Part shown: piece by piece, positions 2,559 to 57,501 of the stretch
How positions within the stretch are numbered: position 1 is the first letter of the stretch
Layout: the number at the start of each line of letters is the position of its first letter
From: Microthyrium microscopicum
Lineage: Eukaryota
DNA: 64,000 nt
Direction: 5' to 3'
NCBI GenBank assembly: GCA_010405405.1
Contig: MU004236.1
Coordinates: 632,576-696,575, forward strand
Made by a program: the position numbers and the translations under genes
The notes under the pieces: model-generated
Seen by the model: only the letters and a program-made list of their open reading frames with translations
Database searches by the model: none
Told to the model about the DNA's origin: nothing

Positions 2559-3146
2559 TATGTTCAAGGCACGCGTGTGTGATGCGCATTTCATCATTCG
2601 ATTCATTCCTGCACGCCTTTAGAACTTGATAGACAACAATTCACCGGCCCTACAATTAGAACAAAATGACTAGAGGTTGACACGGCTATCAATCATGTTA
2701 GAACTGCTCAACGCATCTCTCCGAATTGAGCCGCAACTGAAGATTACTTATGGACAAAGCTAAGGAATCAACCCCTGATCACTGCAACACTGCCATTCTG
2801 CCAATCACTTGGCCTCCTTTTCTGCATCGACAGGGGGTTCGAGTAGGTAGTGGATCTAGAGGAGCTTGTGGTTCAAAAGTCTAGAATTGGTGCATGAGCA
2901 TCGTATTCAGACTACCCCGTATACTTGGTAAAGTTCCATGCTGGTCAGGCTGAATGATGAGCATTCCTCTCCCTTCGTGACTTTCCAGCCCACTTCTCCA
3001 ATACATGTCATTCTGAAATCTTTTGTCTTGATTCATACCCCTCGCTTTTGATGTGAGATGTGTGAGTGTGCTTAGCCACATCGATCTTTTCTTAAACTTA
3101 GTTTCTACGTCGCTCTTTCATATCATTTCTTTTAGTTCACAGCAAC

Positions 3147-5602
3147 ATGCTTCGTTTCGCTTCGCCTAAGCAGCTGCTTAGCAGCCTGAGTCCAGCATAT
3201 GCTGCGGCTCTGGCTCTCGTTTGTATACAGGTTGGTATTGGTATCATGTACAAAGCCGCCCAATCTGGGGGAAAGTGAGTAGACACACGACGAACATCGA
3301 TGAGCTCGAACTAACTACCATGGTAGATATCCCTTTTCTGCGACAGCCTCTGTCACCATATCCGAGACCCTCAAATGTTTATTATCAACGTTCCTATTCT
3401 ATCGAGAATGGAAGAATCGCGAAGGAGGAGTCAGATTACCGCAAACACCTATACCTTCACAACCAGTAACACTTAGGGATATGGAGGAAGGAAAGGAGAA
3501 GGATGACGATGACAGCGATACACTTTCGATATCTGACGATGACCCTCTCCACCATATGGAAAAGTCATATCAACACTCGCAAGGAACATATGCTGCTTTT
3601 TTCGAAGCTGTGAAGGAGGAGATTCCACAAGAAATCAAGTTTGGATTTGCTCATCTCGCGCTATTCTACGTCTTGATCAACAACATTGTCTTCGTCCTCT
3701 TCAGACTTGCCGATCCTGGTACAATTCAGCTTATTAAGTCAGGAACGACTCTGATCACAGCCGTGGTTATGATACTCTTTCTTAAGACCAAGATCGGGCG
3801 TGGACAATGGATAGCGATCGTTTTCCAAGTATGCGGTATTGTTGTTACCCAATATACACCATCAGGAAGCGCATTTCCACTCAGCACTTACCTCATACTC
3901 ATCTTTCAGACGACACTCAGCGCTGTGTCCAGTGTCTACAACCAAAAGCTTTGCAAAAGTAGCGATGGATCCCTTCATGTGATGAACATGACTCTTTACA
4001 GCTGCGGAGCAGTTATCAATTTCATTCTTCATATCTTGGTGCGAATCATGAATCGCGACGAACCGGGATTCTTCACTGGATGGGGACATATCGGAGCTCT
4101 GATGGTCATCGTTAGCAATGTCTTCATTGGCCTTGCCATGACCGCCGTATACAAGTGTAAGTCTACTGTAGTCTTGTTAATCAGGAATTCTTACTGACAT
4201 TCGCAGATGCCGATGCTCTCATCAAATGCTTCGCGACGGCCATGTCCACCGCTATTCTTCTTTACCTCTCCCCGTTACTTTTCAACGTCAGCTTCTCCTT
4301 CCTCGTCATTCCCGGTACATTGGTTGTGTTCATGGCCACATGGCTCTATATGGAATCCACACCCAGTAAACCAGCCAACCCGACTCCAGAAATGAAGCCC
4401 GCCTCTATGGAAGCCGAGACCAAGTCCTTCGTCAGCCGCATCCTCTACTCTCTCTCACCCTACGGCCCATTCCGCAAGGCTGGTCTTATGGGATCTACCA
4501 GCATCTGCTTCCTTATCATCGGAATGGTCACCTTCTATCGCACCCACTACATCATCACCGAACCCACAGTCGAAATCGACCTCCCCACCAACATCACCAT
4601 GCCCCCTAGCAACGCCATCTACGACTCGCCCATGAGAAACGTGGCCGGCTTCATCCGCATCAACCACGACCTACCCGAACGCGTCGAGCAACTAACAGCC
4701 GGCTACGAGCCCTTCTTCGACTCCCTACACTTCAGCATGCCAGCCGAAGGCCACGACCGCAACGAAACCAACCTCGAACGTGACTACTGGAACGATTCGT
4801 ACTGGCCCTACCCAGCCATGGTCGACTACCTGCAACTCGTGCTCAACAACGACGCAGAATACGGCCATCTAGAAGGCGTCCTCTTCTTCCACTTTGACGC
4901 GTGGATTGCGCCACTCAGCTTCAACGACATGGACTTTACCAAACTCTGGGTCCTCGACAAATCCACCGGTCCACCCTACATATGCCAGACAGAACTAAAA
5001 CGCATGGCCGACTGGATGTGGTTCGACGCAGGCTGGCAAGAGAAATCCCTCCAAGCAACCCGCATAATCGACCACATGTACTCCGGCTACACCTTCAACC
5101 CCGAAGAATTCTGCGCCGGGTAAGCCCCCTCCCCAACCACCACCTCCATCCCCTTACTGACAACCCATATAGGTGGTCCGACATGTACTACCTCCCGCGC
5201 CGCTTCTTCCAAGACTTCATCAACCTCGGCGGCGTAATGACCTCCGTGCAAGTATTCCACGAAATCGCCGTCCCCACCATCTGGAACATCATCGACAAGA
5301 CCTACTCGCTACACGCCTCGCAGTCCGTCCTACACCGTTGGGGCGACTGCTGGGGCGACTGCTGCGCTGGCTCACCGCTCGTGGAAGATATTGCCGAGCA
5401 CCGGTGCGGACACCATGTGGATTTTTTGAATTGGGAGATTACGAGTACGCACTTTGATAGATTGGAGAGGGATGCGCAGTTGATTGGGACGGAGATTCCG
5501 GTGAGGGAGGTGAGGCAGACGGCGAAGGGCCCGGTGTTTGTGGAGGCGGATAGGGTGGTGGTGAGTGATGCGGAGGTTGTGGCGAGGTTTATGATGATGT
5601 GA
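3147..5602 (+). CDS. SLC35A-like nucleotide-sugar transporter fused to a C-terminal luminal STELLO/DUF288-like putative glycosyltransferase domain
   Basis: Exons 3147-3274, 3327-4156, 4207-5119, 5173-5602 (introns with GTGAGT/GTAAGT/GTAAGC donors). Transporter motifs: KYPFSATASVTISETLK, ADPGTIQLIKS, QWIAI, SVYNQKL, GLAMTAVYKYADALIK. Then an extra TM helix and a domain with EGVLFFHFDAW..DFTKLW, GWSDMYYLPRRFFQDF and FHEIAVPTI. Confidence 0.82.
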
Positions 5603-5946
5603 GGAGGAGGAGGAGTGGTATTTTTATTTAGCGTGAATTGGAGTTTTATTATAGAGCGAGGGATGTCAAGGAGGTTTTGTACCATATATTATCTTGATCA
5701 TGTTATCCTGGAGCTTTTCTTGCGTACTTTGGTTAGACTACAGTATATCTTGAATGTGAATGAAAGTAATGAGAATCAGCAAGCGTTAAGTATGAACAAT
5801 GTGATGCATTCGCCATGTATAAGAAAAGCTGGACTAATATATCAGATCCGAAATGCAAAAGCGTCTGAACCTAACCAATTTCCGTTTTTGGCGCCACACA
5901 TTTCATTCCACAATCTTGCTCTTCATCCTCTTCAGCTCTTCTTGAT

Positions 5947-7349
5947 TTACAATTGCTCGTTGACAAAGAGACCAGCCATTCCTTGACCAGTTCCAATGCA
6001 CATGCTAGTCAACAAGATACGCTTCTTCTGTCTCCGGGCCTCACTGAGACCAGTAACGATCTGTCGAGCTCCAGTAGCTCCTAGCGGATGACCAAGAGCA
6101 ATAGCACCACCACGGATGTTCATCTTCGAGTGGTCAATGTTAAGCTTGTTCAAGCAATATACAGCCATTGAGGCAAAGGCCTCGTTAAGCTCGATAATCT
6201 CCATATCATCAATGCTCAAGTTGTATTTTCCAAGCAGCTTTGGGATGGCAATGGATGGACCAATACCCATGATACGTGGCGCCAAACCAGCAATAGTAGC
6301 ACCAACAAACTTGGCCATAATCGGCTGTCCAAGGCTCTCAGCCATGGAACGCTTCATGAGCAGAATAGCAGCCGCACCATCAGTAACCTGCGATGAGTTT
6401 CCACCCGTCGAGCGGTTACCAAACTGTGGGAATGCTGGTCGGATCTTTGACAAACTCTCGAAAGTGGTACCATATCGAGGACCCTCATCCTTAGTCAACG
6501 TAACAGTCTTCTCTTCTCCAGTCTTAGGATCCTTGACAGTCGTGGTAATCGGCACAATCTCATCATCGAACCAGCCGCTCTTTTGCGCCACTTCAGCCCG
6601 GCGGTACGACTCGTTTGCATAACGATCTTGCATCTCACGGGTAATGTTGAAATCGTCGCTGACATTTTCGGAGGTCTGACCCATGGGCTGCATGCAATCA
6701 CACGCTTCCTGGTTCTTGAGGATATCTTCGTGGAATGGTCGTGATAGACGGTCTCCGCTTGTAGACATGCTCTCACAGCCAACGGCAAGACCGCAGTCGA
6801 TGCTGCCCATGGAGATCTGGTTGGCAATGTCCTGGACGGCCTTGAGACCAGAGGAGCAGAAGCGGTTGCAGGAGGAGGCGGCGGTGGTGTTGGGGAAGCC
6901 AGCGGCGAGAGCGGCGGCGCGGACGTAGTAGGCGGCTTTGCCCTCGTTGACCTGATGTTCATGTTAGCGTAGGTTTTTGGTGGTGGGGAAATGGGTAGGT
7001 CATACGTTTCCGAGGCAGATGTCTTCGACGAGTGCTGGGTCCATGTTCATGCGCTGGGTGACTTGTGTGAGGAGCTTGACGACAATTCCGTCAACACCGG
7101 TGTCCTTGAGACCACCCTTTCCACCCTTGGTGAGGGGAGTGCGGATGGCGAGGGTGATGACTACATCATCGGGGTGCTTTGCGGTACTGTATAAGCCATA
7201 AAATTAGCAATCGTACTTTGAATTACCATCTCGTCCACTTCAACTCCTTCTCATCCCCTCACTAGATCTGACAAGTAAACTTACATGGCATCAATTGGCT
7301 TGCCACCGGGCAACAGCTGCTGTGCGAAGCTCTTAAGACGTTCTGCCAT
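5947..7349 (-). CDS. POT1: Peroxisomal 3-ketoacyl-CoA thiolase
   Basis: Three exons (ATG at 7349). N-terminal PTS2 RLKSFAQQL; thiolase motifs RFCSSGL, ELNEAFA, GGAIALGHPLGATG, SMCIGTGQG. Confidence 0.95.
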
Positions 7350-7963: not shown

Positions 7964-10900
7964 TCAGCGTCTTCGCTTATAGTCGTACCCTCCTTTCTTC
8001 TTCTTTGCACCAGCTGATTTGGGCAGCTTAATAGGCTCACCAACCATCAGCTCCGTCATCAGACGGACCATGTAATCATCAACATGTGGTATTTCCCCAT
8101 TCTTGACAGGATCGTCAGAACCCGTCTCTTCAACGGCCTTGTCGACAGCAGCATTTGGATTTGCTGCCATGGCTTCCTGCTGATCGGCCTTGATATTTTC
8201 GTCAAAGTCAACATCATCACCAAGCACAATCTCTTGTTGAGCCACTTTGGCAGCTGCTGTGTCTTCTTTATCTTCGACCTTGTCCAGTACATTGCTCATT
8301 TCCGTAACATTATTTAGAAATTTGTCAAAGACGGCAGAGGCCTCGGCATCCTGATTCGTGGCTCGCTCATCGTTGATCATACCCTCGAGCGCATCACGGT
8401 ATGTGACCCGCTGGAACATGTCAGTTGTAAACTCACCACGCTGGATGATCACGTCGTCAAGTAGGCGCTTCTGGTTGGATTTGCGCAGGATGTTGGCTTC
8501 GATGGTGTACTCAGAGACAAAGCGGTAGATGTGCACATCGCGTGTTTGACCAATACGATGCACACGATCCTGACACTGCTTGTCCATGGCAGGGTTCCAG
8601 TCAAGATCGTAGAAGATGACAGTGTCGGCACCAGTAAGATTGATACCGAGGCCACCGGAGCGGGTGCTAAGAATAAATGTGAGAATACGAGTGTCGTTGT
8701 TGAATCGGTCAGTGAGGATTTGGCGCTGTTCAACTTTTGTCGCGCCATCAAGACGAAGATAGCGATGGCCGTGGATGTTGAGGAATTGTTCAAGAATATC
8801 GAGAACTTTGGTGAATTGAGTGAAGATGAGAGCTCGATGGCCTCCAGCTTGTAGCTGGCGTAGTAATTTGTCTAGAGCCTGAAGTTTTCCACAGTCATAT
8901 TGGAGTAGCCGTTTGTCGGGAAAAGCGATAGAAAGGCGGACTCGAGCTTCGTGGAATGGATCAATTCTTCGACGAAAAGATTCTGCAAGCTGTACAGTTT
9001 CCACACCAGCGGGTGTTAAGGTGAGAGGTCCGACATCTTCTGCAACAACTGTAGGAGTGATACATGCAAACTTGGTGATAAGCTCAGTAGCCTGGGAAGA
9101 AACTTGACCAAGAGTAGGCATTAGTCTTGAGATCGTAATGCACTTATCCAAGTAAGGGTAAGCATTGGTGAATTCTGGGTCTTTCTTATTCGGTCGACGA
9201 GGATCGAACCGGTTGGGCATGGTGACCATGTCAATGAGATCCGCTCCGTATATCGGTTTTGCCGCTAGAACTCGTCTCATGTGTGATGCTCTGTTGCGTA
9301 GATCTTGAATAATGTTCTTTTGTGCCTCGATAGCAACCCGCACAGAAACAGAGTCAGACCCATCTGATTGCTGCTTTTCCAAATCCTTTAGTCTCTCGGT
9401 CTCAGAGGCGGCGAGCCTTTCAAACTTTTGAGTAGCTTGAATTTGTGCCAGTCGCATGAGATGTCGCTTTCTTGTTTGCTCATGAGCTGCTGGTAAAAGC
9501 CCACAAAAATCTAAATCCAGTGACCTTGAAGAAAGGAGTCTGCGACGAACCATAAAGTCTTTGATCTCGTAGCTAGCAGCGACAGATTTTGGCATGGCCA
9601 AAGATGTAACAATCTGGCGAGTTTCGAAAAGATCAGGATGATTGCACACCTTTCGCAGTGACATGAGGCAATTCATGACAGACATGTAGTTGCCGGATGA
9701 TAGAGTTCGCTTGGTATCTGCTCGTCCCATGAATCCATCGTAGAGTTGACGCTGGCGTTTCGATAAGCGACAGTACACGACATGCTCATACTTTGACGGC
9801 ATTTGCTTCTCCACTTCAGATTTCAGTCGCCGCAATAGGTAGGGACGAAGAATCTCATGGAGCTTGCTAACACGGGCTTGAGCCTCAGGATCCAACTCTT
9901 GCCGGCCTTGGTCCAGAATCTGATCTGCTGGTCGTTTCATTGTATTCAAAAACTTTTCGAGATCAGCAAAACCACCACCATCTACGCCGGCAGGCATGAG
10001 GAAATAGAGCAACGACCAAAGTTCTTGCAGATTGTTTTGTAGTGGTGTGCCTGTGAGAAGAAGACGTGATTGAGTTTTGAAGGTGAGCAGAGTTTGCCAT
10101 CTCTGAGACTGGAAATTTTTGATGTTGTGAGCCTCGTCTAGAACGAGATAATGCCAATCTCTTCTTTTGAAAGCTTGTTGATCCTGCAAGACGAGATTAT
10201 AGGACGTGATAATCACATTCCATTTATCATCGTCTTTCCAGCCAACTCGCAAACGTCTTCGCTCATTGACATCTCCATAGTAGGTCAAGATTTTGAAAGC
10301 TGGGCACCACTTCTTGAATTCCATTTCCCAATTGAGCATGACCGAGGTAGGCACAACCACGAGATGAGGTCCCCAGACTTCATGAAAGGTAGCAAGATGA
10401 GCGAGGAGCGCAATAGTTTGGATGGTCTTCCCCAAACCCATCTCATCAGCCAAGATACCATTGCGGCCACCAGAGTATAATTTCGCAAGCCAGTCAACGC
10501 CATCATGCTGATACTCACGAAGAGAACCGCGAAGCAGCGGTGAGACCTCTGTACGAAACGACCGCGGGGTTCCTGGAATGATAGAAGTTGTAGGTGTTGA
10601 TATTGCAGCTTCCTGGTCAGGTCGTGGCGTGGATGCCACACTATGGTCCATGTCGCTGGCTTTGTCCGACGTTGGCAGGTTCTGTTCGATCATTTCCACA
10701 TCACTGTCTAGCTCCGATTCCGCGTCAACTTCAGCCTCATCCTCCAAGTCTTCTCCTGTGGTCTGGATGGATTGTGACCGTTTTGCTTCACGAGCTTCTT
10801 TTGCAATAGTTTGAATCTCATCTTTGCCATAAAGAAAACCCAAAGTGTTGGAAATGCCCTCATCTTCCTCCTCCTCTTCATCTTCGGATTCTTGAGAGTC

Positions 10901-12916
10901 GCTTCCCCCACTGCCACTATCATCGTCAGTCATATCGGTGGACTCGTCCTCCGAATTCTCCAGCAATTGATCTGGAACTTCATCCACTTTGAGATTCTTA
11001 TAAGCAGAAAAATCATCGTCGACTTCCGACTCAACACTCGAGTGTGGTGACTTTAGGTCGGATTTAGAATAATCTGCTTTGTCCTCATCTTCTGCATCCG
11101 AGTTATTGGCGTTGCATTCTTCGTCTGCACTTGAAGAGTCGGGTAGCTTCGAATCGAGTACATGGGCATATTTTGCCATGAGTTGCTCCTGGGTAAGCTC
11201 TTGATCATCATCAGCTTGTTCTTGGCTGTCTTCTTCCTCATCACTGCTCTCGGAAAGATTCTCGTCATCCTCAGTGGCCCCTCCAGCAGCATCAGACTCT
11301 TCATCCTCGAATTCGACCTCGGAATTGAAAGCAACCGAATGGCGGCGTGAGCTCATCATTTCGCTAGTAGCTTCGGCTGATGATTCCCGAAATTGATTGT
11401 CCAGTATTTTGGTAGATTGTTCCAGCATTTCATCGAGGTGACGATTGCCTAACGCTTCTTGGTCTCTTTCCCAGTTGGCCAGTTTAATGGTGTCCACTTC
11501 TTGTCGTACCATTAACCACTTGTCTTTCACATCTTTTACAATTTGCTTGTATCGTTTGATTTGATAGTCAAATTCCTCCTGGTAAACCTGGTCCAAGGAT
11601 TTGGCTTCTCGTAGAAATGCCCATCTGTCTTCAGTCGCAATTGCTGTTTGAACGTGTTTGGCAACTTTGGAGGCTTCCTGCATATGTCTATGGACTTCTC
11701 GACTGCGCAAAGTGGAAAAATAAACCGCGTGCTGCGCGACAAATGCCCAATGAGCGTATTTTGTAACAGGTTCAGGAAAAGCTTTGAACGCAAATCTAGT
11801 GCATCGGCCATCACTTAGAACCCCTCCTTCTTCAGCGGCTTCAGTTATGCGCAATCGAGTTTTTGCTTCATTAAGCACTTGGTCGGTATTAGAAGGATAA
11901 GCTTCACCTTCGAGGGGGTCGTCTTTTGACGCCCACTCTTCAAAAGACTCGAAAGTCTTGGGTGGTACAAGGTGCTTCGGATGTTGGCGAAAGGTAGGAG
12001 CTTCGCGTGTTCTGAGATGCTGTTTCGCATATTTGGTAGGTTCTTCGTATGTAGACACAGAGGCGCGACCACGCCGAGTTTTCGTAGAACGAGAAGTCGT
12101 TTTATACTCTTCAGACTCTAGCGGCGCGTCGCCAGAGGCTCGACGACCTCTTCGCGTTGACTTGGTCTCTGAAGGAGCAGGCGCATCATGATGACGAGAA
12201 GACTTTGGTCTGCCAACCCGTCCCTTTGATGCGGTTGACGCTGACCCATGACCGTTAAGTCCATTTAACTTGATCTTGATCGGCTCATCAGCCAAAGATT
12301 TGCGCGGCCGTCCTGGGCCTTTCTTTGGAGGAGGAGGAGATTCTTCTTGGATAAACCTTGTGCTTTTCCGCCTGCCGCCTACAGTTATAGATGTTGGTCC
12401 CGGTATCAATGCACTCTTCCAAGGTGGTGATTTTGGGCGCTCAAGATTACGAGTTGGTGACTCCTCAACCTTGACAGTAGGAGTTACGGCAGGATTTACA
12501 GCAGCCCTCGATGACTTTCTGCGACCATCCACGATAACAGCCGAAGGTCCATCAGCAGCAATCGCGCGCCAAGGAGGAGACGGCGGCTTTTGCTTCTTGG
12601 CTGAATTGAAAACAGATTTATCAGCGGAGGGAGAAGGAGTATGTGCAGCGAGCTTTTTCGAGGGCGGCGAGGGATCTCGGTCGGGGGAGGAAAAGTGGTC
12701 GAATTTTCGCTTCAAGGAGGCGCCATTAGTAGCCATCTCGACGTGTGCATTTTCATCTGAACGATGGCCATTAGAGCCATTTGTATGGGAAGGTTTGACG
12801 GAATCGACGGGATGGGAAGACGTTGCGGAATTGTCTATATCGTGTTCGTTGTGATTGTTAGTTGAGGAGTAATGTACATCCGAGTGATTTGCGAGGGCAG
12901 CGGATGGCTTGGGCAT
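7964..12916 (-). CDS. SWR1: SWR1 Snf2-family chromatin-remodelling ATPase (H2A.Z deposition)
   Basis: Single long ORF with first ATG at 12916. AT-hook (GPGRPRK), HSA-like region, acidic tract, GILADEMGLGKT, LDEAHNIKNF, LRKVCNHPDLF, split ATPase insert, FPDKRLLQYDCGKLQ, QCQDRVHRIGQTRDVHIYR. Confidence 0.97.
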   Translation of the reverse strand: MPKPSAALANHSDVHYSSTNNHNEHDIDNSATSSHPVDSVKPSHTNGSNGHRSDENAHVEMATNGASLKRKFDHFSSPDRDPSPPSKKLAAHTPSPSADKSVFNSAKKQKPPSPPWRAIAADGPSAVIVDGRRKSSRAAVNPAVTPTVKVEESPTRNLERPKSPPWKSALIPGPTSITVGGRRKSTRFIQEESPPPPKKGPGRPRKSLADEPIKIKLNGLNGHGSASTASKGRVGRPKSSRHHDAPAPSETKSTRRGRRASGDAPLESEEYKTTSRSTKTRRGRASVSTYEEPTKYAKQHLRTREAPTFRQHPKHLVPPKTFESFEEWASKDDPLEGEAYPSNTDQVLNEAKTRLRITEAAEEGGVLSDGRCTRFAFKAFPEPVTKYAHWAFVAQHAVYFSTLRSREVHRHMQEASKVAKHVQTAIATEDRWAFLREAKSLDQVYQEEFDYQIKRYKQIVKDVKDKWLMVRQEVDTIKLANWERDQEALGNRHLDEMLEQSTKILDNQFRESSAEATSEMMSSRRHSVAFNSEVEFEDEESDAAGGATEDDENLSESSDEEEDSQEQADDDQELTQEQLMAKYAHVLDSKLPDSSSADEECNANNSDAEDEDKADYSKSDLKSPHSSVESEVDDDFSAYKNLKVDEVPDQLLENSEDESTDMTDDDSGSGGSDSQESEDEEEEEDEGISNTLGFLYGKDEIQTIAKEAREAKRSQSIQTTGEDLEDEAEVDAESELDSDVEMIEQNLPTSDKASDMDHSVASTPRPDQEAAISTPTTSIIPGTPRSFRTEVSPLLRGSLREYQHDGVDWLAKLYSGGRNGILADEMGLGKTIQTIALLAHLATFHEVWGPHLVVVPTSVMLNWEMEFKKWCPAFKILTYYGDVNERRRLRVGWKDDDKWNVIITSYNLVLQDQQAFKRRDWHYLVLDEAHNIKNFQSQRWQTLLTFKTQSRLLLTGTPLQNNLQELWSLLYFLMPAGVDGGGFADLEKFLNTMKRPADQILDQGRQELDPEAQARVSKLHEILRPYLLRRLKSEVEKQMPSKYEHVVYCRLSKRQRQLYDGFMGRADTKRTLSSGNYMSVMNCLMSLRKVCNHPDLFETRQIVTSLAMPKSVAASYEIKDFMVRRRLLSSRSLDLDFCGLLPAAHEQTRKRHLMRLAQIQATQKFERLAASETERLKDLEKQQSDGSDSVSVRVAIEAQKNIIQDLRNRASHMRRVLAAKPIYGADLIDMVTMPNRFDPRRPNKKDPEFTNAYPYLDKCITISRLMPTLGQVSSQATELITKFACITPTVVAEDVGPLTLTPAGVETVQLAESFRRRIDPFHEARVRLSIAFPDKRLLQYDCGKLQALDKLLRQLQAGGHRALIFTQFTKVLDILEQFLNIHGHRYLRLDGATKVEQRQILTDRFNNDTRILTFILSTRSGGLGINLTGADTVIFYDLDWNPAMDKQCQDRVHRIGQTRDVHIYRFVSEYTIEANILRKSNQKRLLDDVIIQRGEFTTDMFQRVTYRDALEGMINDERATNQDAEASAVFDKFLNNVTEMSNVLDKVEDKEDTAAAKVAQQEIVLGDDVDFDENIKADQQEAMAANPNAAVDKAVEETGSDDPVKNGEIPHVDDYMVRLMTELMVGEPIKLPKSAGAKKKKGGYDYKRRR

Positions 12917-13750
12917 TGCCAGCAGCTGCACGAGTGGTTCAAGGCAAATCCGGTCGAACCACCCTGCGCGACACGAACTGATGATAAAGTATTGAGAATT
13001 TCAGTTGAGAAGAAAGCGAAGAGCAAGCTAGAAACGGTGATGTGGTCAGATTTGAGGAGACGTGTAAAAGAGAAGAGTTGTTGGAGATTGAAGGTGGAAT
13101 CAGATGAATTATTAGGAGATGGAAAAAAGCCGATTCCGCGAGCTGATGGCGCGTCTGGAGGGTCAGTTGTAATGTTGCCTTAGTCTGGACTGTACCTTCT
13201 CAACGTGTGCCTGTGTGCCTGATTCGAGCTTGTCTATCCGTTTCAGTTTTGCGTGCTCAGATCCAGGAGCTGAGATGTCTACTATGACACGGGGACGATC
13301 TAAAGTGCAAATAGCCTGAGGAAGGAGCACCCAGACCCGCTTCTGTATGAGGAAGGAGCACACGGATTACTGCAGGCAATAAGGCAAGAGCGACCTATTG
13401 AACGTCACTGCTCCGTCGGGCCAATAATTTACTAGTCCCTCACTGTTACCTACCACAACTGATAGTGCCTCTCTCACCACTACAACTGTGGGCAATTCGA
13501 GCTTCAAGCAACTCTACCTGCAAATCTACAAACTTCACTTTTATTTATGACCGACAATACCACCCCCTGCTACTTACCCTCTGCTTCCATTTGTCCAACC
13601 GTCACCAAATATCTCTCCAAAACGCCGTGTCATTGCTGGCGGACCTTTACAGTCCCACCTCCTAGGAAATGCGACGTGCCGCAATCCTCAAAATCCACCA
13701 TTTCTTCATGACCGACCCATGAACTCTACTCTTTACAACTCTCCAGCGCC

Positions 13751-16700
13751 ATGGACCCTTCCAAGAAGCGCGCCTTGAGGGAAAACAACTTGAAAGTTTG
13801 GGCGGGGGCTACTGGTGCGCAACAAATATTCCTCGGAGCCTCTTCACCCACCTGCTAACCATATCAGACATCTTTCCTGTCAAACAAAACCAAGACTCCT
13901 CCCTAAAGAAAAACACTGCCTTTATAAAACGTCTGCGCACCGCTATTTCCGCCCCAAATGTTAGCCTATTTCTTACTGAAGTCGCGGGCCTTAGTTTGTA
14001 CAAGTACATGGCCGAGATCATATCGTCGCTTTATGAAGGACTACAGAAACTGAAGACTCCAGCCGATATTGCTGCAAGTGTACAAGTCGTCAGCGCCTTA
14101 CATCAACGGTTCGGACCTGCCGAGTTTACGGGATATCTTGGATGGTATATTGGGCGCGGTTTGAGTACTCCAGACAAGTCGCAACTGAAGGCTCTAGCTC
14201 CAGATGTAAAGGAACGTGAAGAGAAGGATCGGCTTGCTCGTCAACGAGGACTACTGAGAGTGGCTACTGAGCTCTGGCTGGCTGGTGTCTTACGAAGCTT
14301 GGAAGATGTTGTCCGCCCCGAATCGGAAACCAAAGACAAAGACGGTGGCAAGGCTTCAGAACCAACTGCAAAAGCGAAAGCTGCAGCAAATGCCGCAAAA
14401 TCACAGACCGGTGAAAGCGACCCATTCCCACTAGAAGTTCTCAAGGATCTGCTAGGCCATGATCGAGACCATGTGAACCTGCCTCTGGTCGTGATTTTTG
14501 TGAAATCATTTGCCTGGGATGTCCTTGGAATAGTGCCCCGTGGCTCTGACCGTAGACCAGGCGCAGACGATCACGATGATGTCAAAATTGAGGGTTCATC
14601 TGAGCCGGATGCCTCCACCAAAGAACCTCCGCTTGCTAGTCCGGAACTTGCTATCCGATTCAAAAACGTCTTGGCCCGTTACTTTGAAGATGTCAAGGCT
14701 CACATCGTGCGCGATCAAAAAACTCTGACCGCTCAAAATCGCCGAAATGCCGAAGCCTATGTTCGTAGTGGCGAAATTTTTGATGATCGTCAAGCAAACT
14801 TTGAGAAGCAGACTAAAGCTCAAGACAAGCTTATATCGAATGCTCAAGTCCTGGCAGATATGCTGGGAGAAGATATGCCTGACCTCCGCGACAAAGATGA
14901 AGGTCCTACCGTAGGAGAAAACTCCATTGGTCTCGTAAAGGCAGGAGATTATCTCAAAGGACAAAACGACGGGCCTGGAATCTGGGAGGATGAAGAGGAA
15001 CGCCGATTTTACGAGAACCTAATTGACGTCAAAGACCGAGTGCCAACTATCTTGCTGGAGGATGGGAAAAAGAAGAAGCAGGAGAATGAGGATCCAGCCG
15101 GCAAGAAGCAGGACTCAAAGTCTCCTGTCGAGGAATCCACCAGTGCTCCTACTTCAACTGATGTTGAAGATCTGAATGTTGCAATTGCGAACAAATCTGT
15201 TGGTGCACAGGTTGATGGACTGCTAGCCCGACTTCCAGATCTCCACGGAAAGGATTCTGTTGATCAATTCGCCATCGACTTTTGCTTTGTCAATTCCAAA
15301 GCCTCGAGAAATCGACTTGTGAAGGCACTTCTTGATGTTCCAAAAGGCCGAGTCGACCTGCTACCACTTTACTCTCGTATTACTGCGATTCTGAGCAAAT
15401 ATATGCCTGATATTAGTTCCGCTATGATCACCCACCTTGATGACGAATTCCGCAGTCTACAGCGCCGCAAATCCAAAGACTTTCTTGGAGCTGTTCGATT
15501 ACAGAATATTCGCTACTTTGCAGAATTGACAAAATTCGGCATTGTACCCGAACATGTTATCTTCCATTGCTTCAAGGTCTGCCTCGATGATTTGACAAGA
15601 ATGAATATCGAAATACTGGGTCAGCTCATGGAAAACTGTGGGCGTTTTCTTCTTCGCAGTCAAGACACATCTCCACGCATGACCTCTTTCTTGGAAACTT
15701 TGCAACGGAAGAAGGGTGCGCAACACCTCGATCCGCGAGAAAAGTTGATCATAGAAAATGCCATCTATCATGTTAATCCTCCCGAGCGGCCGGCTATTGA
15801 GCAAAAGGAACGAACTCCGATGGAGCTTTTCATCCAAAAGATTATCTATGACGATCTCACAAAGCGCAACGTGGACAAAGTCACCAAGCAAATTCGAAAA
15901 CTTCATTGGGAAGAACAAGAAGTAAGGAAATTATCTTTTAATCCAACCGCACTTTGCTAACGTTGTAGGTTGTCTCAATACTAGAGAAAGTCTTCACCCG
16001 TCCATGGAAGGTTAGGTACAATAATATTCACCTACTCGCCGTGATATTGGGATCGATCCATCGCTATCATCCTCAGTTCGCCATCACCTGTGTCGACGAC
16101 CTCTTGGAGACCATATTTGAAGGTCTGGAGAAAAATGATGTCAAATTCAACCAGCGTCGTATTGCTCAAGGCAAGTACCTTGGGGAACTTTACGCATACC
16201 GCATGATTGATTCATCTGTGGTCTTTGACACTTTATTCAAGATCATTGCATTTGGTCACGAAAACGGTATTCCGAAAACCGATTTTGAGAATCCGTGGGA
16301 CCTGCCAACCGACTTCTTCCGTATAAGACTTGTCTGTACCCTTCTTGAAACTTGCGCCAGCTTTTTTGCCCAAGGTCCGGCTAAGAAGAAGCTGGATTTT
16401 TTTGTTTCCTTCTTCCAGTACTACATAAACACCAAGGACAAGCTCTCTCCGGACATCGAGTTCGCTATCCAGGATGCCTTTGCAGTCATTTCTCCCGACT
16501 TGAAGTTGATCGATAGCTTCGAGGAGGCCGGCAAGGAGTTTTCGGATGCCTGTAAGGAAAATTACCAGACAACCGAAAACGGCAAGGTAACTGCCGAAGT
16601 TGAAGATTTGGATGACGAATCGGTTTCGGACGAGGTAGACGATGACGACGATGCGGTCGCTGATGATGCTGAAAAGTCTTCGGCTGACGAGCTCGAAGTC

Positions 16701-17766
16701 CCCGATCAAGCCGACGATTCTGACGACTCTAACTCTAGTGAAGAAGAGGACGAACAGATTATCGTCACTCGACAGGAAGAAGAGCGAGATCCAGAGGTGG
16801 ATGCCGATTTTGATCGCGAACTTGCCAAGCTCATGGCAGATAGTATGGATTCGAGAAAACTTGAGCGGAAGACTTTGTTTGATGTTCCTCTTCCTATCCG
16901 TCGTAAGGAGCGCGAGGCTGCTGGGGAGGAGCCCCAGTTCACACCTGGTCCATTCCCTGATGCTCCTCACATGAAGTTCAGTCTTTTAAGTAAGAGAGGC
17001 AACAAACAACTGGTATGGCGAATTCGCACATCACAAATTTCTATTTTCCATACGTTGGATCTACGCTAACTCTGTTGTAGACACGGGATATTGACCTGCC
17101 GGCTGACTCTACCTTTGCCGTTGCCATGCGTAGCCAACAGCAGGCGCAAAAGCTAGAGCAAAAGCGCATCAAGGACATCGTGCTGAATCTCGACCTTCGT
17201 GATGACTCGACTGAAGCCACAGATGGTGAAGACCCTTTTTCTTCCCCCCTCAAGCGTAACCCAAATCACTCCAAGCTTTTGTCAAGATCAAATTACGGAG
17301 CAGACACTGTGAACCGCACTCCGACGATTCACAGTTCGTCCGTTCAAGGTCGTCATGTTCAGCATTCTGTGGTTTCTTCTTCTACTTCAAATCATGTTGC
17401 ACCAAAAGCCCGCGTTGTGTCCAACAACGAGAATATTTCTACTCACACCTCATCTCAAGGCACATCTCTCGAGAAGAATCCGCCCAATCCCTATCTACAG
17501 CCTCGCGTCGATAAGGCGGGCAAAGGCCGTGCCAATGCGCGCGGCCGACAGCTGCAAGTCAGCGATCTTGACTGGTATGGTGAAACTGCGAACCCTTCAG
17601 CTTCCTCGACCGACATCCATACGAACGCTGGTCGAGGCCATGGTCGTGGACGCGGGCGCGGGCGTGATGCTGCGCGCGGCCGCTGACGACTGGGCTGTTT
17701 TCTTTTGTCGAGTACCAATATACTATGGCGACTAATGACAATGTTTTGTTGCGCGACAGGACGTGA
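13751..17766 (+). CDS. UPF2: Nonsense-mediated mRNA decay factor Upf2/Nmd2 (three MIF4G domains)
   Basis: ATG at 13751; introns at about 13815-13867, 15921-15969 and 17013-17080, probably also 17226-17459 and 17575-17759. Motifs DSSLKKNTAFIKRLR, GIWEDEEERRFYE, FNQRRIAQGKYLGELY, DFFRIRLVCTLLETC, acidic tract, C-terminal LQVSDLDW. Confidence 0.95.
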
Positions 17767-43837: not shown

Positions 43838-44225
43838 TTGTAAGTAATGTAGAAAGAATGTCTGAATAAAGCAAAACACACGGTGAAGCAAACGACGATT
43901 TGAAGGAAAGATGTCGCAGGCTGCTTGAGACAGGACTTGTCGTTCAGGAGGAATTGGAGATAAGTCTCAAAACGCTGGGCAATTCCGTCGCGTGTATGGC
44001 TCTACGCGTTTATTGGCTGAATACACGAGCCTGAATCATGCTTAGCGCGCGCTACTTGTGCTGCCGCCTGTCGCCTAGCTGAGCTTGCATCATTTGAGAT
44101 TGTTGTCTTGAATTCAACACCATCCTCCCTACTATTGTTTACTCTTCTTGACATCCATCATCCATTTCATTTCCTTTCCGAAATTCGTCATCTTCTTTTC
44201 ATTCCCCGGAACTCATATCGCCATT

Positions 44226-45057
44226 ATGCGATCCCAACTTCAATTTCTCGCCCTACCGGCTCTTTGCGCCGCTGCAGATCAACAACCTCTCGCTGACACA
44301 ATCAAGAGCTGGTTCAACCTGGCGAAGGAATACATCCCGACTTCCGTCCCAACATCGATCCCAAATCCTGTCGCTGCTGCCACAGCCAAAGTCGCCGACT
44401 TGGCCGTAACACCCATAACCTTCTACAACTGGCATTCGACCCTTCAACCTGGCCTTCCTAAGGCATCTGGCGAGCCAGATGAATGGCTCATCTACTTCAC
44501 CGGTGGCAACACCACCTGCCTGGGCCGTTGCGACAATACTACTGCTGCCTGGAACACATCTGTAGCCATCTTGACCGCGAGCACAGCTGCTCCGCAGCTT
44601 GGCAGCGTTGACTGCGAGTCGGAAGACTTGCTTTGCAAGCAGTGGGCCGTGGGCCCGCCAACCATCGCACACGTCTTGATTCCATCCGCCGGCAGCCCCA
44701 ACAGCCCCATTGTGCGCTACATTGCACTCAACACCAGCAGCACTACCGCTGCGGATATCACAGAAATTATTAGCAAGCGCAAGTTCGAGCAGACTCCTCC
44801 ATACGAGGGTGTGTTCCAGCCATGGACTGGTCTCCTTGCGACCTATGGTTTCGCCGTGCCAGCTGCTTATGCCATGTGGGGATTCTCAAAGATGCCAAGC
44901 TGGTTGCCCATGATCCTCATCTCTTTCCTCAGTCGCTCATTCATGTAAGTCTATAAACCTCATTTTGTGAAAATCAACATGCTCAACTTCAACTAGGGGA
45001 CGTGGACGAGGAATGCCTCAGGATAGAGGAGCTGCCGCGCCAGCTGCGGCACAATAG
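44226..45057 (+). CDS. Conserved fungal secretory-pathway protein with thioredoxin-like fold and C-terminal TM
   Basis: Signal peptide, EWLIYFTGGNTTCLGRC, VDCESEDLLCKQWAVGPP, PYEGVFQP, C-terminal hydrophobic helix; intron 44945-44996. Confidence 0.8.
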
Positions 45058-48418: not shown

Positions 48419-50195
48419 TCAAAGTCCCTTGGGCGCCTTAACAAGCTCCCAATTCCGCCCACCACCATCCCGATTCGCCTTTTGCAAATCCGTCAACATC
48501 ACCATCAATCCCCTCTTCCCACAATATCCATCTCCCCTTGCGACCTTTTCCACTTTTTGCCAATGGCCTGCCATTTGCTCTTCTGGCATTGGCCATGATA
48601 ATCCGTTTTCAGCGTCCATGGAGGCATTGCGGTTATGTTCGCCATTTAGCGCACTGTTTTCATAAGTCCATGTTTGTACTGTTACGGTTTCGCGGGGGTT
48701 TTGTGTACGGCGTGGGTTATGTTCCCAGCCGGCGGGGAACCACTCCGCAAACCATTGGAGAGGCGTATATGCACGTTCGAACCGCTGGAACCGCGGCTGC
48801 CAGCGCCAGGTGCTAAGATCGTAGGCGACGCGGATATATGGATTGACAAACATTTTCGGAGAGTCCGGGGTGCGGGCGAGGAGATCAGCGTTCAAAAGGC
48901 AGCATTCGGAGGCGTCCCAGAAAATTTCTGGTTCATGGCGGAAACGTAGTGGCTGCTCTATCTGCGTTGTATTTGGCATTGTGTTTTGCGTAAGAATGGA
49001 TGGTGGGTGTGCGTCAACGATGGCGCGCTGGAGGAATGGTGTAGCTTCGTAGGCTGCCATTCCACTCCAGCAGCTACGGACGGGGACAGTGTCAGATTGG
49101 GCGAGGACGGCGTCGCGAGATGTTGCGCTGCCGCGGGCGGTGAAGAAGGGGTAGAGAGAGGTGCTGATTTCGTAGCCGTCTGTGTCGCGGATGACGAAAC
49201 TATCGTATAGCGTGCCGCCGCGTAGAAAGTCGAGAGCGCAGGCGCCTTGGTATTCGGCGATGCCGGTGGTGGGATTCTGGTTGGTGGAGAAGAGGAGGTT
49301 GAGAGCGTCTTCGGGGTTGAAGTATATGTCGTTTATGAAGAGGACGCGGTCGAAGCGTGTGCTGGTGTAGTTGACTGAAGGTGTATGACCGGATTCTAGG
49401 ACTGGTGGATTATCTAGGGGAACTAGAAGTCGGTTTCTGACTTCGGCTAGGTAGGTGAGTCGTTGGACTCGTGGTTCGCCTTTTGGTATTATGACGGTTG
49501 GGAAGTCTGATAGAGGAAGATGGTCGCCAGTCACGATTGAATGCTCGCCTGGTACATGTTAGTATCCGGTCATATATATCAATTTGCAACTTACAGTTCA
49601 ATTGTTGCTGGAACCACTGTAGAGCTTGTACAGTCTCTGGACCACTGTCGTTTTCATATATGCTCACAAAAACATTATCTGGTCCCAACATATCGATAAG
49701 TTCCAGTACTGATGCACCCCATGGTCCCCGAATCAGCTCATGTTGTATTATATTAGATGCAATGAAAACTTTCTCTCCTCGTGGATTGCCCCTTCCTGGT
49801 ATATTCGAGCTTGTAGCCAAAGCAGCCAGCTCTTGATAGCGTTGCGGAAAATTGGAGTATGATGGTCGTAGAACGCCATTGCCAAGCACCCAAAGCAGGC
49901 ATATTATGAATCCTAGTACTACAAGATTGAATATGCAAGAAAATATCCTCAGCTTTTTGCTCTTCGTCTTGCGTCGTTTCCAAATTCCAAGGGGCGAATA
50001 TGTAAGATTCGAAAGAAATCGTCCGAACCGAGACTTTGGAGATCTATGTGGCTTTTCGTAGAAGTAGGATTCCGGGACATCGTCGTGATAGTCGCTGAAG
50101 GATTCGGAGGAAGAGATTCGTGAGTCTTCAGAAGATATACGAGCAAGTAGGTGGGTATTGGCCTCTTCCATGCCGAGACTTCTGTGTGTGTCCAT
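48419..50195 (-). CDS. CAP59/CMT1-family (GT69) alpha-1,3-mannosyltransferase
   Basis: Type II TM; KVFIASNI, VFVSIYENDS, YLAEVRNRLLVPL, FDRVLFINDIYF, ACALDF, YDSFVIRD, VRSCWSG, SECCLLNAD; intron 49549-49594. Confidence 0.92.
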
Positions 50196-52048
50196 GTTGT
50201 TGAATGTTGAAGAGGAATGTGTAAAGAATAGAGGATGACAGGCGCAATTGGCACAGGGCCAAGGCCAGTTATGGTAAGGACGAAAGAAGAGAAACAAAGG
50301 GATCAGGTAAACGTTCTCAACAATCGAGGTGTTTGTTCATGGTCAATGGAACGGCAGTAGTATGGAACAATACAAGCATCAGAGAGGGCACAATTATGCT
50401 CTGACCATTGGATGAGCAGGGCAGGAAGTCTAAAGCGGGAAGCGGATCGGGGTGAGGATTGTGAAGATTAATTGAGAATCGAAGTAATGGGATAAAAATG
50501 ATTTAGGCGAAGGAATAGAATAAGAGTAGAAGCTAGAAGCGTCAAGAAAGAAGAAGCTGAAAATGGAGATCAGTGGTGATGGTAGGACAAAGAGCCGTTT
50601 TCATGGATTTGAAGGAGGCGGCGCATGTGCATTATGGGCTTGTGGGCTGAGACTCTCAGACTGAATACCAGTTGGGAGGCACTGAAAGCGGCACCCTAAT
50701 AGGCTAATAGTAGTAGACGAATCGAAGGAACAAAAGCTCTGACGCAACAAGTCTTCCAACCATCCAGCTTCCAAGGATTTTCTAGAAGCGCTTTAGCTGT
50801 ACCATCGGCACTTTGTTTGCGCGGCACATGCGTGCTAGACTATGTCGAAACGTGTTGGTATTTTCTCCTTGCCCCAACTCACTGGTGGTTGCCCATTGTT
50901 TGATTCGGTATCGTATATCATTCGTATATCATCTTGGTAGGAAAGACTGACTCTTGTGGGATTCAAGATGGGATTTGACCGAGGTCAATATACGAGGATC
51001 TAGAATCCCACAGTACAGAGAGTGAAGGATGTTGGGGACGTGTGGTTAAACAAAATGAGTGCTAAGCTTTTACGGATGCAAGCCTCAAAGCGAATGGCGC
51101 AGGGGTAATTTCTCCTCCTCCTAATTTACTCGTTGTACAAAACCGCCTGGAGAATCAGCTCCCTCAGCCCCAGCCTAATTTTACCTTTATAGATCGCAGT
51201 TACAACTGCAAACTTGACCGTTTTCTTGACTCGAGAAGAACATACTCCGCATTACAGGATTCTGATCGCGAGTACCGAATATTGCCGCGAATGCTGACGT
51301 GGTTGTCCATGATCATGACGTTGAATCTTTGCCCTTTCCAGATCTGGGAGCCGTTAAATCTGCAGAATCTTGCGTCGATCCAATCATCTGCTGGCTATCT
51401 GTAAAAGCCTTGCTTTTTAGAGCCTCAGTGCCAGTGGCGCAAGGTTTGCTGGGCATTTGACACATCAATTGCTACATGGCATTTCATTTGTCGATACTTG
51501 ATAAAGTTTATATCCAGCTTTTCAATAAGGAGGCAGAAGACACTTTCTTCATCTCGTTGATCATGATCTGTTACCCAGAAAACGCACACCGAGGAGCAAG
51601 ACGTCTCCCATTTTGATCCACAAAGAAAATCTACTTTAATTCCCAGCGCATTCGATGGGAAACGGAGTGATGATGATCTGAGTGCGAATCTAAGCACCTG
51701 GTAATACAGTGCAGCGAATGGCATTATTACTACACGTTATGCAGAACCAGTCTGCCATTTATTTTGATTGGGCCCGTTGGCATCTACTGTAGGTAATTGA
51801 TACAATCTCGATGAGAACCACCTGGGCAACTTCCATCTCAAAGATGAGACAACATCCCCAGCCCATAACCATACATACCCACCCCCGCCAACTTAACCCC
51901 GCGCCCGCCTTACAAGCCAATATCAAACAGTCAATCAATACGAGAATCCCACACGATCCAACAGGATCAACTAACCTTGAAATTCCACAGCCTACCGTGA
52001 CACACTCAAACACTCCAGCAGCCTACACGAAGTAATCCATCCGCAATA

Positions 52049-57211: not shown

Positions 57212-57501
57212 TGATGCTATGGAACGTTGATCTTCCGATCTCTCTAGCCATACCCGAATGAAGGCAAATTGAGCGATATAAAATGCTCAGACCCTAGCCT
57301 GACGTCAAAAGGGGGACCATGGCTGTCATGCGTTATGCACACAACACGTTGGCAGAGTAAGATCTGATCGCTAGGCGGAATGCCGATCCATAGCCATGAG
57401 ATTCGCAATATATCAATTGCATAGCTAATGATCCGAAACAAGAGCATTGGGTATCATAGTGCCAGTAGTTAAACAACAAACAAATAAACCAGGCCTACTC
57501 T

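Follow-up and report, generated by a model that had tools for sequence, protein, structure and literature searches.

In the mammalian Golgi, nucleotide-sugar transporters and glycosyltransferases have been described in non-covalent complexes, SLC35A2 with UGT8 and B4GalT1/4 and SLC35A2/A3 with MGAT1-5, whose partners are separate polypeptides detected together by FRET, NanoBiT, or co-precipitation (PMC9368800). Direct hand-over from Golgi transporters to particular transferases has so far been addressed only through such proximity assays on separate mammalian proteins, and a search of the review for a passage on a natural fusion returned none (PMC9368800). The SLC35 transporters keep both the N and the C terminus in the cytosol; for SLC35A1, a three-pocket substrate model has been put forward, and its K124 is required for activity (PMC8411240). 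On the luminal side, the plant proteins STELLO1 and STELLO2 are glycosyltransferase-like Golgi proteins with a single-span anchor, whose DD and DVD motifs are needed for function and whose activity is deduced only from mutants (PMC4906169), no transfer reaction being demonstrated for them. Here we describe a gene of Microthyrium microscopicum, located in a 64,000-nucleotide stretch of contig MU004236.1 (the window), that joins a nucleotide-sugar transporter to a probably luminal domain with a glycosyltransferase-like fold in one polypeptide.

The gene occupies positions 3147..5602 of the window on the forward strand, which is also the strand of all features given below. Direct reading of the sequence gives four exons (3147-3274, 3327-4156, 4207-5119, and 5173-5602) that run from the ATG at 3147 through 766 codons to a TGA at 5600-5602. 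Between the exons lie three GT..AG introns, 52, 50, and 53 nt long, and all three contain a branch-like site (CTAAC/CTGAC). The spliced 766-aa product is 100% identical to P0004, annotated at NCBI as [quoted passage not shown] and a tblastn comparison of P0004 with the window returns four blocks that correspond to the four exons. The transporter and the additional domain form a single polypeptide, joined within exon 3 (4207-5119) without a stop. The preliminary description had reported that no stop follows the last transporter helix (LVVFMATWLYM, residues 358-368), and this holds, the join lying inside one exon. All of the strings that it quoted were found in the product (GSTSICFLIIGMVTFY at 415-430, EGVLFFHFDAW at 542-552, DFTKLWVLDK at 562-571, SDMYYLPRRFFQDF at 626-639, and HEIAVP at 653-658), as were the three N-glycosylation sequons that it listed (NIT 448, NET 505, and NDS 515).

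A gene model of this kind could arise as an artefact if adjacent genes, one for a transporter and the other for a type II enzyme, had been wrongly merged. Automated fungal annotations sometimes merge neighbours, and P0040 (1080 aa, with an extra epimerase domain) may be such a case. However, both parts share exon 3, with neither a stop nor an intron between them, and the frame at 4161-5123 is open for 320 codons from stop to stop, a run that takes in the last part of the transporter, the helix after it, and ~60% of the soluble domain; the chance of an open frame this long is ~2e-5 when base composition alone is considered. The same architecture is also recovered from independent annotations in five classes, with class-level trees of the two halves that are congruent (see below), and we consider a merging error very improbable at this locus.

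The N-terminal half (residues 16-370; 3192..4358, across introns 1 and 2) is, by sequence and predicted structure, a nucleotide-sugar transporter of the SLC35A type, in keeping with the identity first given to it, and transport activity is predicted for it. The PF04142 profile matches exon 2 at 3e-18 (66.5 bits versus a cut-off of 27), and its last 47 positions run into exon 3. The best phmmer match is the maize CMP-sialic acid transporter 6i1r (2.1e-18), and the PDB sequence matches of this half are CMP-sialic acid transporters only. Foldseek places 6oh2, 6oh3, and 6i1r at E values of 1.2e-11 to 2.6e-11, with TM scores by target of 0.76-0.78 for these three (0.76 for 6oh2) and of 0.76-0.80 overall, and the AF2 model has ten helices before residue 370. 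[quoted passage not shown] It differs from them in two additions: a 35-residue acidic insert between helices 2 and 3 (residues 82-116; 3442..3546), which is predicted to be disordered (pLDDT <50) and is unaligned with the solved transporters, and ~400 C-terminal residues that comprise an eleventh helix and the presumed luminal domain.

The substrate pocket was mapped by an HMMER alignment to SLC35A1, with counts taken over 76 homologues. Of 69-76 homologues, 60-73 retain the counterparts of SLC35A1 E52, K55, N102, S188, N210, and K272, and the residues of the three-pocket model that are kept in the M. microscopicum protein are E56, K59, N161, S241, N263, Y267, and K326. Two pocket positions have changed relative to SLC35A1, Q101 to I160 and K124 to T183, the latter with K180 nearby. 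The K124 column never holds Lys (0/71 homologues), so the substrate pocket appears to be atypical; Lys or Arg stands three residues upstream in 68/71, as does the Lys of the fusion itself. Three proteins considered as non-fused paralogues for a comparison of the pocket Tyr (P0130, P0142, and P0164) were set aside, as they are truncated members of the fused family.

The transporter is followed by a predicted cytosolic linker (residues 371-408; 4359..4472), in which the model shows a short helix (394-402) and which carries basic residues ahead of the eleventh transmembrane helix. This helix spans residues 409-435 in the AF2 model (4473..4553) and has a moderate hydropathy of 1.83 over 411-429. 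Behind it comes a putative luminal stem (residues 436-459; 4554..4625), which is Pro/Thr-rich, contains the NIT sequon at 448, and has a pLDDT of <50 for 437-454. Because the termini of SLC35 transporters are cytosolic, the eleventh helix would cross the membrane again and place the following domain in the lumen. Several conserved features are consistent with this topology. The net charge is +3 in the 15 residues before helix 11 and -2 after it, and a positive-inside pattern, with more positive charge before the helix than after, is seen in 63 of the 68 complete fused homologues. In 62 of these 68 proteins, the same linker contains a hydrophobic stretch of 19 residues that scores 1.6 or more. 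A sequon occurs in the loop at 498-521 in 72/80 relatives, and six cysteines of the domain are near-invariant, each being present in 77-81 of 78-81 members. From helix 11, the charge pattern, the cysteines, and the sequons, we strongly infer that the C-terminal domain is luminal. The extra helix, the Pro/Thr stem, and the luminal placement had all been proposed from the window sequence, and each is retained here.

The opposite topology, with the domain in the cytosol, would require that helix 11 does not span the membrane or that the transporter is oddly oriented. The topology is indeed a predicted one, helix 11 is no more than moderately hydrophobic, and the corresponding stretch falls below 1.6 in 6/68 homologues. 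Set against these points are the near-invariant cysteines with the conserved sequon loop, the positive-inside pattern, and a ten-helix core that overlays the solved structure of SLC35A1, a protein with both ends in the cytosol, all of which makes a cytosolic domain exceedingly improbable. The full-length AF2 model, with a pTM of only 0.64, does not establish the arrangement of the two domains relative to each other.

The soluble domain (residues 460-735; 4626..5506, across intron 3 at 5120-5172) is present as described earlier; its size is to be corrected from ~310 aa to ~275 aa, followed by a 31-aa unconserved tail. The domain-only AF2 model (pLDDT, 91.5; pTM, 0.87) was compared with known structures by Foldseek, one of the checks suggested for the glycosyltransferase-like fold. 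In the PDB there are 24 matches at E values of ≤1e-3, and all matches listed are GT-A glycosyltransferases (GT6, GT14, GT31, GT2, and GT7); the 34 matches in BFVD are mostly transferases of the same kinds. The solved enzymes that share this fold class include BoGT6a (GT6; 4cj8), C2GnT-L and XylT1 (GT14; 2gam and 6ej8), and AfGfsA, B3GNT2, and B3GalT5/6 (GT31), which were matched with a Foldseek probability of 0.99-1.00 and E values of 4e-5 to 1e-3. The PDB similarity is modest (TM 0.34-0.49 by query and 0.23-0.53 by target, at 7-12% identity); in contrast to the shared fold class, no sequence motifs are held in common with these enzymes and no one CAZy family stands out. A GT-A glycosyltransferase-like fold is therefore supported for the C-terminal domain at the level of predicted structure.

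Sequence comparison gives the domain no such placement. No Pfam family was found for it in four pieces of the window, in 31 relatives, or in 81 family members, so the family is not assignable by sequence, and a profile of 25 domain sequences searched against PDB sequences returned one spurious match only (E value, 1.9). Judged from these searches, the domain belongs to no described family, having neither a Pfam entry nor a sequence tie to a characterised transferase. The predicted transferase "Jumble" of choanoflagellates, for which unannotated fungal homologues have been mentioned (PMC6322860), was considered as a relative and set aside, as no evidence ties Jumble to this domain.

The canonical DXD motif is absent from the domain. 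A candidate counterpart is H548-F-D550 (4890..4898), located where the third parallel strand ends, with H548 kept in 79/81 and D550 in 80/81 members and a strand modelled at 543-548 directly before. Going by strand position rather than by a structural alignment, H548-x-D550 may stand in for DXD. Some GT-A families (GT14) do without a DXD motif entirely. Two further segments are strongly conserved: GWSDMYYLPR (residues 624-633; 5118..5200), which is split by intron 3 and contains D627 (81/81), P632 (81/81), and R633 (76/81), and a cysteine-rich segment composed of C683-W-G-D-C687-C688 and R701-C702-G-H704 (5348..5413), which provides the family motifs DCWGxCC and RCGH. Here C683 is invariant, together with C579 and C622 (81/81 each), C687 and C688 are kept in 77/78, C702 in 78/79, and H704 in 77/79.

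The fusion could be real and the C-terminal domain still not be a glycosyltransferase. It might instead have the GT-A shape but serve as a regulator that binds nucleotides or sugars, hydrolyse nucleotide-sugars, act on them as a phosphodiesterase, or be a scaffold to which other enzymes are recruited; the missing DXD, the lack of a sequence match to any characterised enzyme, TM scores to solved GT-A enzymes that are mostly <0.5, and the fact that STELLO activity is deduced only from mutants (PMC4906169) would all suit such a role. However, all of the listed PDB matches and most of the BFVD matches are transferases, the set of near-invariant polar residues across 81 members resembles an active site, and for a domain fused to a nucleotide-sugar importer, a function that uses nucleotide-sugars would seem the simplest reading. 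We consider a non-transferase role unlikely.

The domain had been called STELLO/DUF288-like for its resemblance to the C-terminal half of plant STELLO/DUF288 proteins, and this label was examined by Pfam profile, ESM Atlas features, and predicted structure. The top three named clusters in the ESM Atlas are STELLO (features/shared, 0.97/207 of 256, 0.92/190, and 0.92/173), a result to be read with the caution that only 3 of the 10 best named matches agree on a family and that features and structure count as one source. The predicted model of plant STELLO2 gives a TM score of 0.73 by query over 251 residues. On these grounds STELLO/DUF288 is the nearest named family, and to that extent the label is kept. 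The STELLO/DUF288 profile of Pfam, PF03385, on the other hand, matched none of four window pieces (E value, ≤1), none of 31 relatives (E value, ≤1), and none of 81 members (E value, ≤10), so STELLO membership is not shown. PF03385 is likewise absent among the 120 matches listed of 144 from the C-domain profile search, and bridging to STELLO by sequence ended at the most divergent member, P0144, which retrieved itself only. In organization, the fusion would resemble STELLO in having a glycosyltransferase-like luminal domain behind a single membrane span. It differs in that H-x-D is found in its domain rather than the DD and DVD motifs reported for STELLO (PMC4906169), and in that the domain hangs on the transporter instead of on an N-terminal helix of its own.

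The full C-terminal domain was found in 152 proteins, 66 of which have a full transporter ahead of it, and these 66 full-length fused proteins span five ascomycete classes. When the exon-3 peptide was used as the query, PF04142 was present in 20/20 longer proteins, with a query coverage of 100% in 16 and 87-99% in the other four. For 28 named fused proteins, a separate tree was built from each half; the proteins group by fungal class in both trees, with 4 and 6 label changes versus a shuffled mean of 12.8 (0/200 shuffles as low). Given these class-congruent trees, the fusion appears to be of old origin and to have been passed on vertically among filamentous ascomycetes. A scan of bacterial and archaeal genomes with two motif patterns produced 52 motif matches and no confirmed relatives.

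Many of the short entries that look like stand-alone copies of the domain come from fused genes whose ORFs were called too short, and clusters of ~340-aa entries (at least 90% identity) also contain fused lichen proteins of 751-771 aa. Stand-alone versions with an N-terminal helix of their own exist in annotated genomes of bdelloid rotifers and, going by the annotation, in three Leotiomycetes. Such forms raise the question of whether one gene might give two products, with transcription or translation also starting internally, between helices 10 and 11, and yielding a stand-alone type II membrane protein besides or instead of the fusion, which would then be partly a view imposed by annotation. 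A start at M383, for example, would produce a short basic tail, helix 11, the stem, and the domain, which is exactly how type II Golgi enzymes are arranged. Codon usage could hint in the same direction, as GC3 rises sharply near codon 320, from 0.50 in the transporter part to 0.72-0.76 after it, which might reflect separate expression of the 3′ half. Against two products, the linker frame is open here and in the 66 full-length homologues, M383 and M388 are unconserved (Met is outside the five commonest residues in both columns across 76 aligned proteins), retention of intron 2 or 3 would introduce early stops and give no clean transporter, and the apparent stand-alone entries are in many cases the truncated calls mentioned above. 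An additional or alternative short product is, in our judgment, improbable.

We regard as probable, with some reserve, the explanation that the gene encodes one membrane protein in which a transporter carries a tethered luminal GT-A domain acting as a transferase. The eleventh helix would take the chain across the membrane again, to a flexible luminal stem of ~25 residues, and a disulfide-bonded, N-glycosylated domain of GT-A fold would lie in the lumen, oriented as in ordinary type II glycosyltransferases of the Golgi. The most likely role of this domain is to bind the nucleotide-sugar that has been imported and to move the sugar onto a luminal acceptor, with H548-x-D550 in the place of DXD, D627, R633, H653-E654, and R701/H704 as the candidate site. 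Through the tether, the transferase would stay close to the transporter at a 1:1 ratio, so that the donor could be consumed at its exit point and the nucleotide product freed beside the antiporter. What the analysis shows is how the gene is built, that its first half is a transporter by identity, that one more helix follows, which fold class the domain has, and that the fusion is conserved; catalytic activity, donor and acceptor, any kinetic benefit of the tether, and the organelle are all parts that we infer.

The transporter of the fusion would, like those of the mammalian complexes, be physically joined to a luminal glycosyltransferase, and a coupling of import and transfer has been proposed there as well (PMC9368800). 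Unlike those complexes of separate proteins, the fusion links its two parts covalently at a 1:1 ratio, and this link has been kept in evolution. We found no description of a natural transporter-transferase fusion in the literature, nor of the fused family under its locus tags or in studies of fungal "UDP-galactose transporters," in a search limited to literature outside subscription journals; database names such as "UDP-galactose transporter" cover under half of the fused proteins. A conserved covalent 1:1 fusion may be seen as an evolutionary "Rosetta stone" form of import-transfer coupling and would make coupling simple to test, as the fused protein can be compared with its halves expressed apart. 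Since an uncharacterised GT-A family here comes together with the transporter that serves it, assaying transport by the N-terminal half would reveal which sugar the C-terminal half takes as donor.

Some pocket residues bear on what that donor might be. Like SLC35A1, the transporter of the fusion has a Tyr at the Y214 position, as do 55/75 homologues; this position is Gly in the UDP-galactose transporter (PMC8411240). Neither of the two beta-phosphate glutamines of SLC35A2 is found in any of 71-76 homologues. One could speculate from these residues that the pocket is of the CMP type, not the UDP type, and that the fusion is a self-contained CMP-sugar cycle, an idea that we hold to be quite doubtful. 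In such a cycle, a CMP-activated acidic sugar would be imported and used by the tethered transferase, and the freed CMP would itself be the antiport substrate, so that a luminal nucleoside diphosphatase would be unnecessary. If true, a CMP-type pocket would suggest that filamentous ascomycetes have a so far unrecognised pathway of glycosylation with CMP-sugars (sialic- or ulosonic-acid-like) and would be the first handle on the donor of STELLO-like transferases.

The genes neighbouring the fusion encode a thiolase, an SNF2 ATPase, Upf2, and a kinase-like fragment; no glycan gene cluster was found in the genomic context, which therefore provides no clue to the sugar. The C-terminal tail (residues 736-766; 5507..5599) is unconserved, with a pLDDT of <50 for 736-755, and the tails of homologues vary in sequence and length. 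Codon use in the M. microscopicum tail is odd, with G at a frequency of 0.77 at third positions.

The gene under study (3147-5602, plus strand) was read within window positions 2900 to 5800 as four exons (3147-3274, 3327-4156, 4207-5119, and 5173-5602), separated by three short introns of 52, 50, and 53 nt with GT..AG ends and branch-like CTAAC/CTGAC sites. Splicing gives a product of 766 aa. A search with the exon 3 peptide retrieved the M. microscopicum product itself (P0004; 766 aa, 100% identical), which is already public under the automatic name [quoted passage not shown] A tblastn search of P0004 on the window exactly recovered the four exon blocks and found no second copy (paralogue) elsewhere in the 64 kb. 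The last part of the transporter, one added helix, and the greater part of the soluble domain all fall within a single exon, and positions 4161-5123 form an open frame of 320 codons, with a chance of ~2e-5 from composition alone. The preliminary description had proposed a transporter fused to a luminal domain in one frame; that observation is real and its main structural reading is right, and all the motifs and sequons it quoted lie in residues 358-658 of the product. With the parts sharing an exon, a gene model that merges two genes is very improbable.

A nucleotide-sugar transporter makes up the N-terminal half. PF04142 matched exon 2 with 66.5 bits, versus a cut-off of 27, and the last 47 positions of the profile run on into exon 3. 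The three matches among PDB sequences are all CMP-sialic acid transporters (maize 6i1r, 2.1e-18; mouse, 3.9e-14 and 4.6e-14). An AlphaFold model of the whole protein (alignment of 113 rows; mean pLDDT, 85.5; pTM, 0.64) places ten helices ahead of residue 370 and matches the transporter structures 6oh2, 6oh3, and 6i1r with E values of ~1e-11 and TM scores by target of 0.76 to 0.80; residues 82-116, between helices 2 and 3, are acidic and disordered. Pocket residues of SLC35A1, a transporter of CMP-sialic acid, taken from the three-pocket model in PMC8411240, were transferred via a HMMER alignment to PDB transporters, and family counts for these columns cover 76 aligned homologues. Seven residues are kept (E52, K55, N102, S188, N210, Y214, and K272, here E56, K59, N161, S241, N263, Y267, and K326), and two are replaced, Q101 by I160 and K124 by T183, the latter with a conserved lysine (K180) three residues upstream. 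Judged by these residues, the transporter module seems complete though of an atypical kind, and the pocket does not reveal the substrate.

In the Colletotrichum-type proteins (P0196, P0199, P0201, and ~12 further rows), the transporter half has strongly diverged, with Gly for Tyr at the Y214 column and Gln at the Y98 column. Its branch length is 2.81, compared with an ordinary 0.54 for the C-terminal half, which suggests that the substrate changed or that the transporter module was replaced.

The full-length model contains a further helix at residues 409-435, with a hydropathy maximum of 1.83 over 411-429. Among 76 aligned proteins of at least 560 aa, 8 with an incomplete transporter or domain were left out; a hydrophobic 19-mer (≥1.6) lies in the same linker in 62 of the remaining 68, and positive charge is greater in the 15 residues before the linker helix than after it in 63. 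This helix 11 is kept by position rather than by sequence, as a membrane anchor would be. Both termini of SLC35 transporters are described as cytosolic (PMC8411240), so one further span would place the remainder of the protein in the lumen. Two independent signs agree with this orientation: cysteines 579, 622, 683, 687, 688, and 702 are each present in 77 to 81 of 78 to 81 members, and the loop at 498-521 carries an N-X-S/T sequon in 72 of 80 members (N505 and N515 in M. microscopicum). Collectively, these features strongly argue that the C-terminal domain faces the lumen, and a cytosolic domain is scarcely credible.

No Pfam domain matched the window pieces covering the C-terminal domain (E ≤ 1), no glycosyltransferase family or PF03385 was found among 31 relatives (E ≤ 1), and a profile of 25 domain sequences gave no genuine match to PDB sequences. 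A model of residues 454-766 built from an 81-row alignment is confident (pLDDT, 91.5; pTM, 0.87). Its 24 Foldseek matches to the PDB (E ≤ 1e-3) are, among the matches listed, all GT-A glycosyltransferases, including BoGT6a (the lowest E value listed, 4.2e-5), the GT14 enzymes C2GnT-L and xylosyltransferase 1, Aspergillus galactofuranosyltransferase GfsA, B3GNT2, B3GalT5/6, and chondroitin synthase, with TM scores of 0.34 to 0.49 by query and 0.23 to 0.53 by target at 7 to 12% identity. A viral structure library gave 34 matches (E ≤ 1e-3), mostly unnamed or with GT-A-type transferase names such as Fringe-like, GT14, GT8, and GT25. On both sets of matches, the fold class of the modeled domain is GT-A, with no close solved or viral structure.

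The DXD motif of GT-A enzymes sits after the third parallel strand, and the near-invariant H548-F-D550 directly follows this strand here. D627 of GWSD is present in all 81 members, and R633, H653-E654, and R701/H704 are further near-invariant polar residues. These positions plausibly form a candidate active site, with individual roles assigned by inference; a noncatalytic domain, or one with a role other than that of a transferase, appears unlikely beside this conservation.

The resemblance to STELLO/DUF288 noted in the preliminary description holds in part, as proximity rather than as an established membership. Three STELLO (PF03385) clusters stand closest to residues 455-735 among the named clusters of the ESM Atlas (0.97, 0.92, and 0.92; 207, 190, and 173 of 256 features shared), a family agreed on by only 3 of the 10 best named hits, and the Atlas model of the protein matches a model of a plant STELLO2 with a TM score of 0.73 by query over 251 residues, the same value as to rotifer members of the domain's own family; both searches draw on one source and carry no alignment or E value. 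PF03385 matched none of the 81 aligned members (E ≤ 10). Together, these results make STELLO the closest named relative and the label a reasonable lead. STELLO proteins are reported (PMC4906169) as Golgi-luminal and GT75-related, with required DD/DVD motifs.

In the mechanism judged most likely, the transporter would import a sugar in activated form and export a nucleoside monophosphate in return, while the GT-A domain, tethered by helix 11 and ~25 residues of disordered stem, would stay luminal beside the transporter exit. The domain would then hand the sugar on to an acceptor in the lumen, and the nucleotide would be set free next to the antiporter. The data establish the conserved architecture, the identity of the transporter, and the fold class; the orientation, the catalytic activity, the identities of donor and acceptor, the organelle, and a kinetic benefit, if there is one, are parts of this scheme that we infer. 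Mammalian SLC35A2/A3 complexes with UGT8, MGAT1-5, and B4GalT1/4 are noncovalent, with transport-synthesis coupling proposed (PMC9368800), and nucleotide-sugar transporters are described (PMC10013753) as having six to ten helices and a length of 300 to 400 aa. Searches for fusions, locus tags, and fungal studies in full-text literature outside subscription journals found no description of a natural transporter-transferase fusion. We rate this protein as a known transporter covalently attached to a GT-A family with no description found.

A whole-library search with the exon 3 peptide gave 146 representatives (E ≤ 1e-3), and a profile search gave 144 (E ≤ 1), 120 of them listed. By domain HMM, 152 of at least 256 proteins hold a full C-terminal domain, preceded by a full transporter in 66, a partial one in 17, one helix in 34, and none in 35. 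The clusters of two database proteins (P0184 and P0211) group automatic-ORF entries of ~340 aa at ≥90% identity with fused proteins of 751 to 771 aa from the lichen fungi Alectoria and Imshaugia, so apparent "stand-alone" entries in metagenome-derived sets are often exon-limited truncations by ORF callers, as are many of the short proteins counted here. An internal start giving an additional stand-alone product has an outside chance.

Among the matches listed, named fused carriers span Dothideomycetes, Lecanoromycetes, Leotiomycetes, Eurotiomycetes (Exophiala), and Sordariomycetes (Colletotrichum, Fusarium, Metarhizium, Ophiocordyceps, and others). For 28 fused proteins, picked for having names, one quick tree was built from the transporter half (117-370) and another from the domain half (460-735), with SH-aLRT support only. 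Both group by class, with 4 and 6 label changes versus a shuffled mean of 12.8 (0 of 200 shuffles with as few) and the same terminal pairs. This pattern fits a single ancient fusion passed down vertically. Two motif patterns confirmed no bacterial or archaeal relatives in 185,579 species genomes.

The bdelloid rotifers Adineta vaga, A. steineri, and A. ricciae encode several stand-alone copies of the C-terminal domain, of 290 to 350 aa (P0100, P0089, P0228, P0242, P0253, P0230, P0233, P0238, and P0243), six of the nine with their own N-terminal helix. They form a single clade (support, 100), which a quick 50-row tree places amid the fungal rows with weak support (84), a candidate fungus-to-rotifer transfer involving the 3′ half alone. 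In an Ophiocordyceps camponoti-leonardi protein (P0040; 1,080 aa), the transporter and C-terminal domain are followed by a domain of the NAD-dependent epimerase/dehydratase type (PF01370; 1e-13; residues 739-931); this is either a merged neighbor or a triple fusion, and the epimerase may hint at the sugar pathway.

None of four neighboring genes, a phosphotransferase-like fragment (2-478), a thiolase (5947-6963, minus strand), an SNF2-family ATPase (7964-13000, minus strand), and Upf2 (13723-17069, plus strand), relates to glycan synthesis. Over 3147-5615, GC3 is 0.40 to 0.60 up to about codon 320, where third positions change sharply; beyond it, C is 0.35 to 0.75 and T mostly 0.00 to 0.10 through codon 680, reaching 0.28 in codons 681-720. 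The final 46 codons have G3 of 0.77 and C3 of 0.03, and GGAGGAGGAGGAG lies immediately 3′ of the stop codon. Other strong GC-skew blocks (up to ±0.30 per kb) occur at 44000-45000, 50000-51000, and 54000-59000 and may be genes sharing the C-rich third-position bias.
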